Shown: positions 8,951 through 12,201 of the stretch, in pieces
Layout: each line of letters opens with the position of its first letter
Position numbering within the stretch: the stretch's first letter is position 1
Origin: a virus
Lineage: Duplodnaviria; Heunggongvirae; Uroviricota; Caudoviricetes
Virus record (IMG/VR): IMGVR_UViG_2531839664_000015
Location: 1-16,592 of that record
Direction: 5' to 3' (one strand)
DNA length: 16,592 nucleotides
Translations under genes and position numbers: made by a program
Notes under the pieces: generated by a model
Database searches by the model: none
Seen by the model: only the letters and a program-made list of their open reading frames with translations
What the model was told of the DNA's origin: nothing

Positions 8951-9376
8951 TCAATGCACGACAACAGCATTACCAGGCTGCCCCCCACTGTTAGTCAGGG
9001 TGCCCCAGGCGATCGCCGCTGCGACAAAATCATCCACATCTTTCACCAGCCGATCCCTCCGTTCGACGATCTCACGGTAATATTCAGAGCTGTGACTGCG
9101 CATACGGGCCACCAGCAGAGGCGGCATTGCCTTTTCGATCGCCGGTAACAGAGCCTGCATTTTTTCAACTGCATCAGGGGTGTCTTTCTCTATCCAGCGG
9201 AAAATTTTCTGGGTATTGCGAGCCAGGGCTTCCGGATGGCTGTCGTCGTACAGTTCAGGAAACGTCATACCCAACTCAAAATAAGCCTGGGTTATTCCAG
9301 CTGCCGGAACTTTTTCGCCATCAGGACGCGCCCAGGCATTCATCGCCATGCGGATGTGTTCATGCTTGATTTTCAT
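8951..9376 (-). CDS. ydaT: YdaT-family protein (cII-slot protein of Rac-type immunity regions)
   Basis: 141 aa from the ATG with a GGGGGGA ribosome-binding site; MKIKHEHIRMAMNAWARPDGEKVPAAGITQAYFELGMTFPELYDDSHPEALARNTQKIFRW... closely matches Rac YdaT as recalled. Confidence 0.85.
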   Translation of the reverse strand: MKIKHEHIRMAMNAWARPDGEKVPAAGITQAYFELGMTFPELYDDSHPEALARNTQKIFRWIEKDTPDAVEKMQALLPAIEKAMPPLLVARMRSHSSEYYREIVERRDRLVKDVDDFVAAAIAWGTLTNSGGQPGNAVVVH

Positions 9377-9602
9377 GAATCCCCCCTTGGTTAGAAGGCG
9401 GATTATGATCAGAATCGGGAATGACAACCGTCGGTATGTGTAACTCATATTTGAGCGCCCCGGCAGTGACTGCCTGAATTAGCAACGCCCATTTCCACGG
9501 AACGTCTTCCCCCCACATGCTGACTGTGGTTTTTGACGTTCCTAGAGCGGCGGCTGTTTTAACAACTCCGCCAAAATAGCCTAATACTTCTGATTTTTTC
9601 AT
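9360..9602 (-). CDS. Cro/YdaS-like helix-turn-helix regulator (80 aa)
   Basis: First gene of the minus-strand early operon, divergent from cI; helix-turn-helix segment VVKTAAALGTSKTTVSMWG; overlaps the ydaT start by 17 nt. Confidence 0.7.
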   Translation of the reverse strand: MKKSEVLGYFGGVVKTAAALGTSKTTVSMWGEDVPWKWALLIQAVTAGALKYELHIPTVVIPDSDHNPPSNQGGIHENQA

Positions 9603-9693
9603 GAGTCGCTCCATAAAACTGAACGCCAAAAGTTTAATAATCAAAACCAAAGAAAGTCAAGAAACAAAACCATCTGTGTTTTAAAATCAAAAC
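9603..9693. promoter_or_regulatory. divergent immunity control region (OR-like) with 18-bp palindrome TGTTTT-N6-AAAACA at 9677-9694
   Basis: 91-bp AT-rich intergenic region between divergent cro-like and cI-like genes; a perfect inverted repeat overlaps the cI start; a second partial palindrome AAAACT-N10-AGTTT lies at about 9616-9636. Confidence 0.5.
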
Positions 9694-10332
9694 ATGAACA
9701 AGCAAACAATATCTGAACGCATAACCCAACGTATGCATGCGCTAAACTTGAAAGGCAAAGACCTTGTCAATGCCACTGGCGCATCAAAAGGCTCCGTAAG
9801 TCAATGGATGAACGGTGGAGGAGCGCCGTCCTCGCGTTACATAAGTTCACTGGCAAAGATATTGAAAGTAAACGAAAATTGGCTTCTTAATGGAGGAGAG
9901 TTAAATACAGGTGATTCGCTTGATCTATCTTTACCGCCGATAAAAACGGTTCCGCTACTATCACTTCAGCAGGCAGCAAGCTGGAGTGATTATATGAAAA
10001 ATTCCTCAATAACCTCTTGTGTGCAGCTTGTCGGAGAAATCCCGGCCAATACCTTTGCTGTTGTTCTAGAGAGTGACAGTATGTCGACATCTGGTGGTGG
10101 AGTTTCCATCCCAAATGGTTCAACAGTTTTTGTTGATCCCGATCGAATCGTACAACCAGGAAATATTGTCCTTGCCTTACCCAAAGGGACCACAACGCCT
10201 GTCATTCGCAAACTGGAGATAGAAGGGCCGGATATTCTTTTAGTCCCCACGAATCCTCGCTACCCTTCAATTATGCTGGATGATCTATCTTGCATATTGG
10301 GAGTATGCTTTAAAATTCAACAAGATATTTAA
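9694..10332 (+). CDS. CI-like phage repressor (N-terminal helix-turn-helix plus C-terminal S24 LexA-like peptidase domain)
   Basis: 212 aa; helix-turn-helix LKGKDLVNATGASKGSVSQW; S24 motifs (AVVLESDSMS with the Ser nucleophile, downstream Lys in IRKLE). Confidence 0.9.
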   Translation: MNKQTISERITQRMHALNLKGKDLVNATGASKGSVSQWMNGGGAPSSRYISSLAKILKVNENWLLNGGELNTGDSLDLSLPPIKTVPLLSLQQAASWSDYMKNSSITSCVQLVGEIPANTFAVVLESDSMSTSGGGVSIPNGSTVFVDPDRIVQPGNIVLALPKGTTTPVIRKLEIEGPDILLVPTNPRYPSIMLDDLSCILGVCFKIQQDI

Positions 10333-10396
10333 CCAACCTCATCTATTTGATTAACTGTATGCCATCGTAGTGATGGCGTAACAGCTGCCTGCTTAA

Positions 10397-10445
10397 AATG
10401 TTTTGATAAAAAAACATTGACCTTAAATGTTCGTTTTTCTAAACT
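10397..10445 (+). promoter_or_regulatory. putative PL-like promoter (-35 TTGACC, 17-bp spacer, -10 TAAACT) overlapped by a second copy of the palindrome (10399-10416)
   Basis: Sigma-70-like hexamers at 10417-10422 and 10440-10445; the palindrome is identical in half-sites and spacing to the one at 9677-9694; a third AATGTT lies in the spacer. Confidence 0.4.
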
Positions 10446-10624
10446 TCATTCATTCCCTCACCCCGCCCCACAGAATGCAGGGCAATACTTCGAGTTACCA
10501 GGCAGTGGTCAGGGGTTAAGTAGCCAGCCCGAGGCGTAAGAACATGACGGCAGGGTTCAACTTTAATAACTATGCAGCAGGTTTTTGTTCCGCTACCCCG
10601 GCGTTAAGGGGAAATGAGGTCAAC

Positions 10625-11637: not shown

Positions 11638-12201
11638 TTTATCCTCCATTGAGGTTCTGGGTTAAAAATGGAGACCAACACGCTGTCACGTGTGGTCGTG
11701 CGCCGGACACGGATAAGAATCCGGTACTGACAGTTTACTGAAAGGATATTTCCCTGAAAAGTCAGTGCATAACGCGAAAGCGTACGGCGAAGCTCTTTCC
11801 CTTAGAAGGCTTGTCGTTAGATTTCTTCGAACGTGCGCTTCCGGTTGTGGCACTCCGCGAAATGGCGCGGCGGTAAGTATGGCGGGGTTATTCCTTCCCC
11901 ATTGAGGACACCGGGTTGTCAGGTTGACCATACGCTTAAGTGACAACCCCGCTGCAACGCCCTCTGTTATCAATTTTCTGGTGACGTTTGGCGGTATCAG
12001 TTTTACTCCGTGGCTGCTCTGCCGCCCTTTTTAAAGTGAATTTTGTGATGCGGTGAATGCGGCTAAGCGCACGCGGAACAGTTAAAACCAAAAACAGTGT
12101 TATGGGTGGATTCTCTGTATCCGGCGTTAATTGTTAACTGGTTAACGTCACCTGGAGGCACCAGGCACTGCATCACAAAATTCATTGTTGAGGACGCGAT
12201 A

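Follow-up and report, generated by a model that had tools for sequence, protein, structure and literature searches.

Results

Genes and promoters of the CP-933O immunity region

The window analysed here, a stretch of 16,592 nucleotides, is prophage CP-933O of E. coli O157:H7 EDL933. Its minus strand carries cro, the cII-like ydaT, O and P, and its plus strand carries a 212-aa repressor gene of the lambda CI type followed by an operon of the PL type, ydfA-dicF-dicB-recE (Table 1). The ATG codons of cro (9602) and cI (9694) are divergent, and DicF lies at 11976-12027, downstream of the PL-like promoter, whose layout matches that of Qin dicBp. The repressor is GenBank AAG56160.1 (annotated as 'putative repressor protein encoded within prophage CP-933O'). 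It matches lambda repressor (3bdn) over its full length with E=4.9e-10, and its N-terminal domain matches the repressor domains of 434 and P22 C2 (E~1e-4). With an N-terminal HTH domain and a C-terminal S24 domain it has the layout of lambda CI and LexA, and its translation contains candidates for the Ser/Lys dyad (the serine motif SDSM and the lysine of IRKL). The Ala-Gly (or Cys-Gly) scissile bond is absent from the linker, where QQAAS (A94-A95) aligns to the VQAG of the relatives described below. No Shine-Dalgarno sequence was seen upstream of cI. BLASTP gives no alignment between CI and Cro; a helix motif, SKxxVSxW, is common to the two proteins and was spotted by eye only. The domain matches and the sigma-70 promoter scan bear out the earlier assignment of a CI-like protein, a Cro-like protein and a PL-like promoter to this DNA.

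Table 1. Genes, promoters and candidate operators of the CP-933O immunity region, in window coordinates.
Feature	Position	Strand	Evidence and remarks
cro-type gene, 80 aa, P22_Cro family	9360..9602	-	Pfam PF14549, E=1e-15; GGAG ribosome-binding site
Immunity cassette (cro, OR, cI, OL, PL), ~1.08 kb	9383..10458		block replaced in heteroimmune relatives
OR1-like candidate operator, AGTTTAATAATCAAAACC	9631..9648		exact GTTT-N8-AAAC core; matrix 16.6 bits, rank 2
PR-like promoter for cro	-35 TTGACT 9660..9655, -10 TAAACT 9636..9631	-	promoter scan; conserved in relatives
Possible weak OR2, AAGTCAAGAAACAAAACC	9654..9671		23 bp away from both OR1 and OR3; matrix -2.7 bits, rank 49
OR3-like candidate operator, perfect palindrome TGTTTTAAAATCAAAACA	9677..9694		matrix 18.1 bits, rank 1 of 16,575
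cI-type repressor gene, 212 aa	9694..10332	+	Pfam and PHROG matches HTH_3 and Peptidase_S24
OL2-like candidate operator, perfect palindrome TGTTTTGATAAAAAAACA	10399..10416		matrix 15.6 bits, rank 3; flush with PL -35
PL-like promoter for ydfA-dicF-dicB-recE	10417..10445	+	promoter scan; -35 TTGACC, 17-bp spacer, -10 TAAACT
OL1-like candidate operator, TGTTCGTTTTTCTAAACT	10428..10445		matrix 15.1 bits, rank 4; over PL spacer and -10

Two perfect palindromes on either side of cI

The original prediction was that one 18-bp palindrome, TGTTTT-N6-AAAACA, lies on both sides of the repressor gene. Exact matches to TGTTTTNNNNNNAAAACA are indeed found at the OR3-like and OL2-like positions and nowhere else in the window, a non-random occurrence given a chance expectation of 0.00 in 200 dinucleotide-preserving shuffles. 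When dinucleotides are preserved within the two AT-rich intergenic regions, a perfect 6-N6-6 palindrome of any kind arises in 1.6% and 5.6% of shuffles respectively, and an identical half-site in both regions in 0/100,000 local shuffles. The core GTTT-N8-AAAC occurs three times, always within the immunity region, versus 0.39 expected. The 88 kb of flanking EDL933 DNA contain no further exact copy and no matrix match of at least 14 bits.

The first copy overlaps the cI start as had been proposed, its last base being the A of the ATG. The second starts 66 nt past the cI stop codon and is adjacent to the PL-like promoter, but it does not overlap the -35 as was claimed, since it abuts TTGACC (10417-10422). 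A dimer bound there would still be expected to occlude this hexamer.

Further candidate sites over PR and PL

Between the divergent cro and cI, OR1 to OR3 fill 9631-9694 and overlap the -10 and -35 of PR. Their first bases, 9631, 9654 and 9677, are 23 bp apart, which is roughly two helical turns; the middle site is weak. OR1 covers the spacer and the -10 of PR (TAAACT, on the minus strand), a position shared by all relatives, and OR3 holds a candidate PRM -10, TAAAAT, at 9682-9687. OR2 has a good half-site on its right and, on its left, a half that is complementary to the PR -35. The right half, (A/T)AAAC, is kept in all relatives and has no variable position within the E. coli haplotypes; because of its poor matrix score, OR2 is proposed as an operator only tentatively. 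Beyond cI, PL has its own set of sites with this recognition sequence: OL2 and OL1 bracket the -35 and cover the -10, at an atypical spacing of 29 bp.

The perfect copies are the promoter-distal sites (OR3-like and OL2-like), and not those lying directly over the lytic -10 elements. The full operator set would follow (T/A)GTTT(T/A/G)-N6-(A/T/C)AAAC(A/T/C) and comprise at least four sites, of which the perfect copies would be two. The conserved determinant is GTTT-N8-AAAC; the sixth base of TGTTTT varies even in close variants. The proposed reading of the palindromes as OR and OL operators is supported by the footprint, the matrix, the depletion of polymorphism, the cassette and the different half-sites of other cassettes, but was incomplete with regard to the number of predicted sites, the promoter-distal place of the perfect copies and the variable position 6.

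Conservation of the sites in other genera

Relatives sharing the recognition helix were taken from an exhaustive HMMER search, and their loci from a single genome scan. A word-indexed protein search had given only relatives with at least 73% identity, which are unsuitable for footprinting, and tblastn of the CI N-terminal domain against phage records returned only self matches and distant Acinetobacter matches. The footprint set comprises five relatives (L007 and L009-L012), from Symbiopectobacterium, Edwardsiella, Kosakonia, Scandinavium and a 'Martelella' contig, whose repressor DNA-binding domains are 56-68% identical to that of CP-933O and in which the CI homologue is accompanied by a Cro homologue of 45-55% identity. 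Each carries four core sites, (T/A)GTTT-N8-AAAC(A/T), at homologous positions; the comparison with related immunity regions that the original prediction proposed as a check thus came out in its favour. In all five, the OR3 homologue has the A of the repressor ATG as its last base, and the OL2 homologue lies upstream of the -35, as it also does in Qin. The position of OL1 relative to TTGACx/TAAACT is the same in L007 to L012 and also in Qin dicBp, there with TGTTAG half-sites. The distance from OL2 to OL1 is 29 bp in CP-933O versus 34 bp in all five relatives. The core is 43-fold enriched in their regulatory DNA (25 in 1,003 bp versus 17 in 29,335 bp elsewhere), although these counts represent non-independent events, as L009-L012 are kin to one another and the regions are AT-rich.

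A weight matrix built exclusively from the other genera places OR3, OR1, OL2 and OL1, in this order, at ranks 1-4 of the 16,575 window positions, with scores of 15.1-18.1 bits; the next match scores 11.9. The two relatives that are closest by domain identity behave unevenly: L007 fits the pattern and L008 (a 'Vagococcus' contig) does not do so fully, having a PL/OL1-like element only, with no OR palindromes and no cro. The motif was not seen in L013 (Pseudoalteromonas, 43% identity). We have treated L008 and L013 as outside the specificity group.

Variation within E. coli

A scan of viral contigs was swamped by near-identical copies and was used for polymorphism only. Among 49 haplotypes, 13 of the 95 positions within sites are variable versus 51 of 122 other non-coding positions (Fisher p=5e-6), and OR3 has no variable position at all. 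The diverged variants L004 and L145 have the same OL2 but differ in neighbouring bases; in L146 and L147, position 6 of OL2 changes from T to A, and OL1 regains a GTTT core. Across intact variants with a CI of 83-84% identity, half-site changes are confined to a single one at position 13 in OR3, a single one at position 6 in OL2, and outer or position-6 changes in OL1; the GTTT/AAAC core of these three sites is never broken. Part of this conservation may reflect a short divergence time, because FORC_041 retains intact operators despite regulators annotated as pseudogenes (other members of its lineage have intact regulators).

An exchangeable immunity cassette

Homology to phages Tritos and 689R5, which encode different repressors, stops at ~9382 and resumes at ~10459, and OR1, OR3, OL2 and OL1 all lie within the swapped block. 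Phages vB_EcoS-813R8 and 640R1 have the cassette of CP-933O. In the same slot, half-sites of another sequence are found on both sides of the repressor gene: ATCTAA-N6-TTAGAT in 689R5 and AGTACA-type in Tritos. A neighbouring EDL933 prophage likewise has CCTTAG-N6-CTAAGG on both sides of its repressor gene. Operator sequence hence co-varies with the repressor, and the GTTT/AAAC core is retained in relatives whose recognition helix is similar. As judged from these exchanges, the sites are likely to be determinants of immunity specificity, as originally suggested.

Discussion

We consider it very likely, with a probability of roughly 85%, that both palindromes are operators of a lambda-type bistable switch in CP-933O, bound by dimers of CI and most likely also by Cro. 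In a lysogen, CI on OR1 (with or without OR2) and on OL2 and OL1 would occlude RNA polymerase at PR and PL; the block at PR would keep cro-ydaT-O-P off, and the block at PL ydfA-dicF-dicB-recE. Filling of OR3, by Cro first or by an excess of CI, would turn off cI, whose transcript is probably leaderless and starts at its own ATG. Since the outer half-site of OR1 and OL1, TAAACT, is also the -10 hexamer, repressor and sigma-70 would compete for the same bases. Dimers might also cooperate or loop the DNA between the two arrays, which are 722 bp apart, with cooperativity at PL being uncertain because the OL2-OL1 spacing differs from that of the relatives. Activation of PRM by CI from OR2 in the manner of lambda is unsupported. 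The starts of PR and the putative PRM are ~70 bp apart in CP-933O versus 82 bp in lambda. With a cI start at 9694, this spacing would centre OR2 near -31.5 and not at the activating position of -42.

The perfect sites at OR3 and OL2, the degenerate O1 sites, the non-activating OR2 and the Ala-Ala in place of Ala-Gly could together point to a differently wired switch: one insensitive to SOS, dominated by autorepression or by Cro, possibly thrown by an antirepressor in the way that Rem acts on DicA, and controlling dicF-dicB-recE. We find this wiring rather doubtful.

A much less probable alternative is that the sites serve one regulator only, for example that the perfect palindromes are high-affinity sites dedicated to Cro and CI acts on OR1 and OL1 or on some other motif, or the reverse. 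To our knowledge, the same operators serve CI and Cro in each lambdoid switch characterised so far, which counts against this division. The lack of BLASTP similarity between the two proteins would fit it, as would the perfect copy at OR3, where lambda Cro binds first. In CP-933P, YdaS likewise binds PRM first, yet the footprints of both regulators overlap (PMC8630535). Also in line with a single regulator, DicA bound only the cro-proximal Oc in vivo, and not Om or Oa (PMC3441716). All five relatives that have the motif encode homologues of both CI and Cro, and the comparison therefore cannot separate the two proteins.

It is very improbable that the palindromes are chance symmetries of AT-rich DNA, or promoter A/T tracts such as a UP element, and lack a binding protein of their own. 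In favour of this, both regions are rich in A and T, OL2 sits where a UP element of PL would be (-38 to -55), and perfect 6-N6-6 palindromes appear in 2-6% of shuffles of either region alone. However, no shuffle yielded the same half-site in both regions, the GTTT/AAAC core stays constant from genus to genus whereas spacers and linkers do not, and the sites track the cassette; OR3, moreover, is not upstream of a -35. Still less credible is binding by the CII-like YdaT or by a host nucleoid protein (IHF, Fis, H-NS). YdaT does recognise an 18-bp repeat of the same 6-N6-6 format, TTGATT-N6-AATCAA (PMC9986795), and TTTTGAT is present within OR1, OR3 and OL2. But the YdaT motif is not found in either palindrome even with 3 mismatches allowed, a YdaT-type site is found instead at 9366-9383, on the ydaT start, and the ydaT flank is common to heteroimmune phages with different operators; no IHF consensus was seen by eye. 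Finally, that the palindromes act as RNA hairpins, such as a translational or termination element at the cI 5' end and in its 3' UTR, is hardly credible: both can fold as 7-8-bp A/U stems and the second has z=-5.8, but these stems have little stability (-3.6 and -5.7 kcal/mol) and no U-tract, the first would lie outside the mRNA altogether if cI is leaderless, and what the relatives keep is the core of the DNA half-site and its placement with respect to the promoter hexamers, not stem stability.

Operators of a switch bound by CI and probably Cro thus remain our preferred reading, which makes these sites a new example of a well-known lambda-type element and not a new mechanism. This immunity type is present in 1,042 of 5,426 complete E. 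coli genomes (about one fifth), EHEC included. We did not find a prior description of the motif or of the site map in the searchable literature (operator strings; 'CP-933O' plus 'repressor'). The results provide a likely operator code, (T/A)GTTT-N8-AAAC(A/T), and a map of sites for the immunity type that controls one O157:H7 dicF-dicB operon. With these, homo- and hetero-immunity among such prophages should become predictable, and the design of reporter or CRISPRi work on DicF and DicB expression in EHEC is made easier. They also support correcting a RefSeq annotation that omits the DNA-binding half of the repressor.

The arrangement resembles that of phage lambda in the divergent cI and cro, the three OR sites at 23-bp spacing, and the second array at PL, downstream of cI and reading in the cI direction. 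The sites of both overlap -10 and -35 elements and belong to an exchangeable immunity cassette, and the cI start devoid of a Shine-Dalgarno sequence is consistent with a leaderless PRM transcript, as in lambda. Yet CP-933O sites are 18 bp long with a GTTT...AAAC core, whereas lambda sites are 17 bp and of the TATCACCGC type; the most symmetric ones are OR3 and OL2 and not the O1 positions; only two OL sites are clear; and CI has Ala-Ala where lambda has its Ala-Gly cleavage site. P22 is related through Cro, which belongs to the P22_Cro Pfam family, and through the match of the CI N-terminal domain to C2. Its operators are also 18 bp, but their half-sites (ATTTAAG-type), like those of 434 (ACAA-N6-TTGT), differ from those of CP-933O.

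CP-933P (Sp12) resides in the same strain and shares the ydaT-O-P flank; the PRE primer of its study is an exact match to 9349-9368 (PMC8630535). PaaR2 and YdaS leave DNase I footprints on 18-bp palindromes that overlie PRM and PR, and a PL promoter has operators resembling these; as in CP-933O, the half-sites are T-rich (GTTTAG) and the PL hexamers repeat those of PR (PMC8630535). Unlike CI, PaaR2 has no peptidase domain. A toxin-antitoxin pair, paaA2-parE2, is part of the cassette of CP-933P, for which four sites were reported (PMC8630535). GTTT/AAAC cores are 10 bp apart in CP-933P versus 8 bp in CP-933O, and BLASTP detected no similarity between PaaR2 and CP-933O CI.

In the Qin prophage of E. 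coli K-12, Oc (TGTTAG-N6-CTAACA) is an in vivo target of DicA, and binding is lost in a point mutant (PMC3441716); DicA represses dicBp 22-fold (bioRxiv 10.1101/2023.04.14.536235). The two prophages share the ydfJ locus, the downstream ydfA, DicF and dicB, and a PL in which a site, the -35 TTGACC, 4-5 nt and a site overlapping the -10 follow one another, dicBp thus having the -35/operator/-10 layout of CP-933O PL. In the N-terminal domain, DicA and CP-933O CI are 37% identical, but DicA, at 135 aa, has no S24 domain. The perfect palindrome of Qin is the cro-proximal Oc, whereas the perfect OR palindrome of CP-933O is cI-proximal, and no similarity was detected between DicC and CP-933O Cro. Both systems use the 18-bp 6-N6-6 format with an identical outer TGTT...AACA, but the inner half-site is TT/AA in CP-933O versus AG/CT in Qin and so not of the DicA type. 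Judging from these half-sites, the specificity of CP-933O is related to that of DicA without being identical, and the Oc of DicA and the footprinted sites of CP-933P are the closest characterised analogues of its operators.

Results

Two identical TGTTTT-N6-AAAACA palindromes had been proposed to flank the repressor gene as operators, and the search confirms them as a real feature: the 16,592-base window holds two exact copies, 9677-9694 (TGTTTTAAAATCAAAACA) and 10399-10416 (TGTTTTGATAAAAAAACA), dinucleotide-preserving shuffles of it hold none, and no further exact copy was found in 88 kb spanning the remainder of the prophage, the prophage next to it and host DNA. Because the two copies are both in intergenic DNA rich in A+T, we also shuffled only these intergenic regions, of 94 and 211 bp. 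In 1.6% and 5.6% of these local shuffles, respectively, a perfect 6-N6-6 palindrome arose by chance, and in 0 of 100,000 did both regions gain one with an identical half-site.

Candidate operators and neighbouring features in the window
Feature	Position	Strand	Detail
OR1	9631-9648		16.6 bits, 2nd of 16,575 positions
OR2	9654-9671		-2.7 bits
OR3	9677-9694		18.1 bits, top of 16,575
OL2	10399-10416		15.6 bits, 3rd of 16,575
OL1	10428-10445		15.1 bits, 4th of 16,575
PR, for cro	TTGACT(9660..9655)-18-TAAACT(9636..9631)	-	consensus scan
PL, into ydfA-dicF-dicB	TTGACC(10417-10422)-17-TAAACT(10440-10445)	+	consensus scan
cro (P22_Cro family)	9602..9360	-	GGAG ribosome-binding site
YdaT/CII-like gene, O- and P-type replication genes		-	
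Repressor cI	9694-10332	+	HTH_3 and Peptidase_S24
DUF1391/ydfA, DicF, dicB, recE	DicF 11976-12027	+	after repressor gene; DicF (Rfam sRNA) downstream of PL
Hairpin just 3' of cI stop	10355-10384		-15.9 kcal/mol, z=-5.1, no T-run
YdaT-type site	9366-9383		TTGATTTTCATGAATCCC, overlaps ydaT start codon
Fifth-best matrix match	1292-1309		CGCTTAATTCATTAAACA, 11.9 bits
sok antitoxin RNA (hok/sok)	4568-4742		Rfam
Two tRNA genes	25-98, 202-274	-	Rfam

In E. coli O157:H7 EDL933 the window has a 100% identical counterpart, and its 212-aa protein is listed in GenBank as AAG56160.1 ('putative repressor protein encoded within prophage CP-933O'). Along its whole length this CI aligns with lambda repressor (3bdn, E=4.9e-10), and its N-terminal domain also matches the 434 and P22 C2 repressors; the region is a lambda-type immunity region in inverted orientation. 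In EDL933, the RefSeq/PGAP annotation of the repressor is limited to its C-terminal 113 aa ('LexA family protein', 9994-10332) and leaves the HTH half out, the uninterrupted 212-aa ORF being the original GenBank call; the shortening probably arose because no SD sequence precedes the 9694 ATG. The lack of a ribosome-binding site before this ATG, together with a TAAAAT hexamer (9682-9687) 6 nt upstream of it, is the pattern expected of a PRM transcript that, like lambda's, is leaderless, and we infer such a transcript here. The hairpin behind cI keeps a 6-bp GCCATC/GATGGC core in diverged variants while its loop varies, and may act between cI and PL as a terminator or a processing site.

An exhaustive HMMER search found the CI DNA-binding domain to be fairly isolated: the next clusters share about 60% identity or less, several of them keeping the helix-turn-helix 'ATGASKG(S/T)VSQWxNGG'. 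From an alignment of this domain we recovered seven loci in other genera. Five of them, from Symbiopectobacterium (L007), Edwardsiella (L010), Kosakonia (L011), Scandinavium (L012) and a 'Martelella' contig (L009), pair the repressor with a Cro homologue 45-55% identical to that of the window. When upstream regions of these five and the window were aligned without gaps on the repressor ATG, three 18-bp elements appeared, 23-24 bp apart: an OR1-type site (AGTTTAAT...CAAAC), the PR -35 complement with an (A/T)AAAC half-site, and a dyad whose last base is the A of the ATG, in the window as in the relatives. This last dyad is a perfect TGTTTA-N6-TAAACA in L009, L011 and L012 and a one-mismatch variant in L007 and L010. 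Anchoring on the downstream TAAACT -10 revealed one site upstream of the -35 and another covering the spacer and -10. Lambdoid immunity genes of enterobacterial type also occur in assemblies labelled as a Firmicute (L008, 'Vagococcus sp.', from a 17.6-kb contig) and an alpha-proteobacterium (L009, 'Martelella alba', 1.8 kb), likely through contamination, at least for L009; the L008 locus keeps a PL/OL1-like element and lacks both cro and the OR palindromes.

We built a symmetrised weight matrix from the 20 sites of the five other genera alone (consensus TGTTTAAATATTTAAACA; positions 2-4 and 15-17 invariant). It ranks OR3, OR1, OL2 and OL1 first in the window, shuffled windows having a median maximum of 9.1 bits; nothing in the 88 kb beyond scores above 13.4. 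Candidate OR2, at -2.7 bits, is suggested only by its spacing and conserved right half. The fifth-best match recurs in the neighbouring prophage (L148 12722-12739, 12.5 bits) within a small hypothetical gene, and is probably conserved coding sequence, not an operator. Allowing at most one mismatch, GTTT-N8-AAAC has exactly four matches at homologous positions in each of the five relatives. Across these loci, which are not fully independent, such matches are 43-fold enriched in regulatory DNA (25 in 1,003 bp) relative to the rest (17 in 29,335 bp).

Of 5,426 complete E. coli genomes, 1,042 carry the cassette. In a set of 49 distinct haplotypes, variation affects 13 of the 95 positions in the proposed sites and PL -35, against 51 of 122 in other non-coding DNA (Fisher p=5e-6), and OR2 and OR3 do not vary at all. 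In some diverged variants with intact Cro and CI 83-84% identical (L145-L147), OR3 is changed at position 13 (...TCGAAACA) and OL2 at position 6 (TGTTTA...), while OL1 becomes TGTTTG..., its core restored. The GTTT/AAAC core is never broken in them, which makes GTTT-N8-AAAC, flanked by A or T, the invariant determinant: of the half-site originally described, TGTTTT, the core is kept and the sixth base is variable. An 82%-identical variant of the same lineage (FORC_041, L004; 1300-1543, 1674-1766, 1935-2273), in which PGAP calls cro frameshifted and cI fragmentary, has OR3 and OL2 intact base for base, with the differences in OR1 and OL1 confined to outer bases or position 6.

The flanks of the window also occur in phages Tritos and vB_EcoS-689R5, whose repressors are different. 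Homology of these phages to the window stops shortly after the ydaT start, at about 9382, and returns at about 10459, which places both palindromes and both lytic promoters within an immunity cassette of about 1.08 kb. The 689R5 cassette has its own dyads, ATCTAA-N6-TTAGAT, on either side of its repressor gene, Tritos has AGTACA-type dyads in the same arrangement, and in the next EDL933 prophage the dyads read CCTTAG-N6-CTAAGG; a change of repressor thus goes with a change of operator-like dyad. That adjacent tandem prophage carries its own dicA-like/cro/ydaT region (L148 4474-4550 and 3803-4066; EDL933 1849473-1849549), with CTAAG-type sites also near its PL region, which by its sequence is another heteroimmune cassette of the same 18-bp format.

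Discussion

Judged from sequence comparison, the palindromes are predicted operators of an already well-known kind. The original prediction read them correctly; to it we add a full site map, a refined motif, comparative support and several departures from lambda. Its placement of the 10399-10416 copy at PL holds as adjacency, not overlap, since this copy (OL2) abuts the best -35 hexamer.

OR1 in PR and OL1 in PL occupy equivalent positions over the spacer and -10, and their outer half-site TAAACT is the -10 hexamer itself, so that a bound dimer would exclude sigma-70; OR3 covers the cI start and putative PRM -10. In CP-933P, the Cro analogue YdaS is the first to occupy the PRM side, and PaaR2 is the stronger repressor of PR (PMC8630535). 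From the lambda paradigm and these CP-933P data, CI would be expected to keep PR and PL shut, and Cro, or excess CI, to turn off cI via OR3. Less probably, one regulator alone would bind the sites. The DicF copy would be under control of the candidate operators.

YdaT, which recognizes a site of similar format (OM, TTGATT-N6-AATCAA; PMC9986795), could also be thought to bind the palindromes, but the only YdaT-type site in the region, with two mismatches to OM, is at the ydaT start. Tritos has a perfect AATCAA right half there; the cassette junction falls within this right half, so CP-933O may have weakened its YdaT/PRE site. Chance or an UP element would leave unexplained both the conservation of the core across genera and the confinement of the sites to the cassette. 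RNA hairpins are disfavored by weak folds (-3.6 and -5.7 kcal/mol).

Our literature search found no paper with these operator strings or on the sites of the CP-933O repressor. The closest characterised homologue is DicA of Qin (37% identity in the N-terminal domain), whose operator Oc (TTGTTAGTCATAACTAACAA) was shown by in-vivo binding and by a mutant in which one base change abolishes binding (PMC3441716). Oc shares the 18-bp 6-N6-6 format and outer TGTT/AACA, although inner bases differ and the perfect site in Qin is the cro-proximal one. Qin dicBp has the same PL-side layout with TGTTAG half-sites, and the right-hand operon of the window is Qin's. The prophage also lies at Qin's chromosomal site in K-12, ending beside a truncated ydfJ (L149 31291-32574), consistent with its Qin-like dicB operon. 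Among footprinted systems, the closest analogue is that of CP-933P, in the same strain, whose repressor is unrelated in sequence.

Against lambda, the most symmetric sites here are the distal ones, OR3 and OL2; OR2 would be centred at about -31.5 if cI starts at 9694, not at the activating -42; and OL2 and OL1 are 29 bp apart, compared with 34 bp in all five relatives. A further departure is the CI linker, which reads QQAAS, with Ala-Ala at A94-A95 (9973-9978). Relatives carry the canonical Ala-Gly autocleavage site, VQAG, at this place, and L007 carries QQAEK. CI retains the Ser and Lys catalytic motifs; its RecA-dependent inducibility may be altered or lost.
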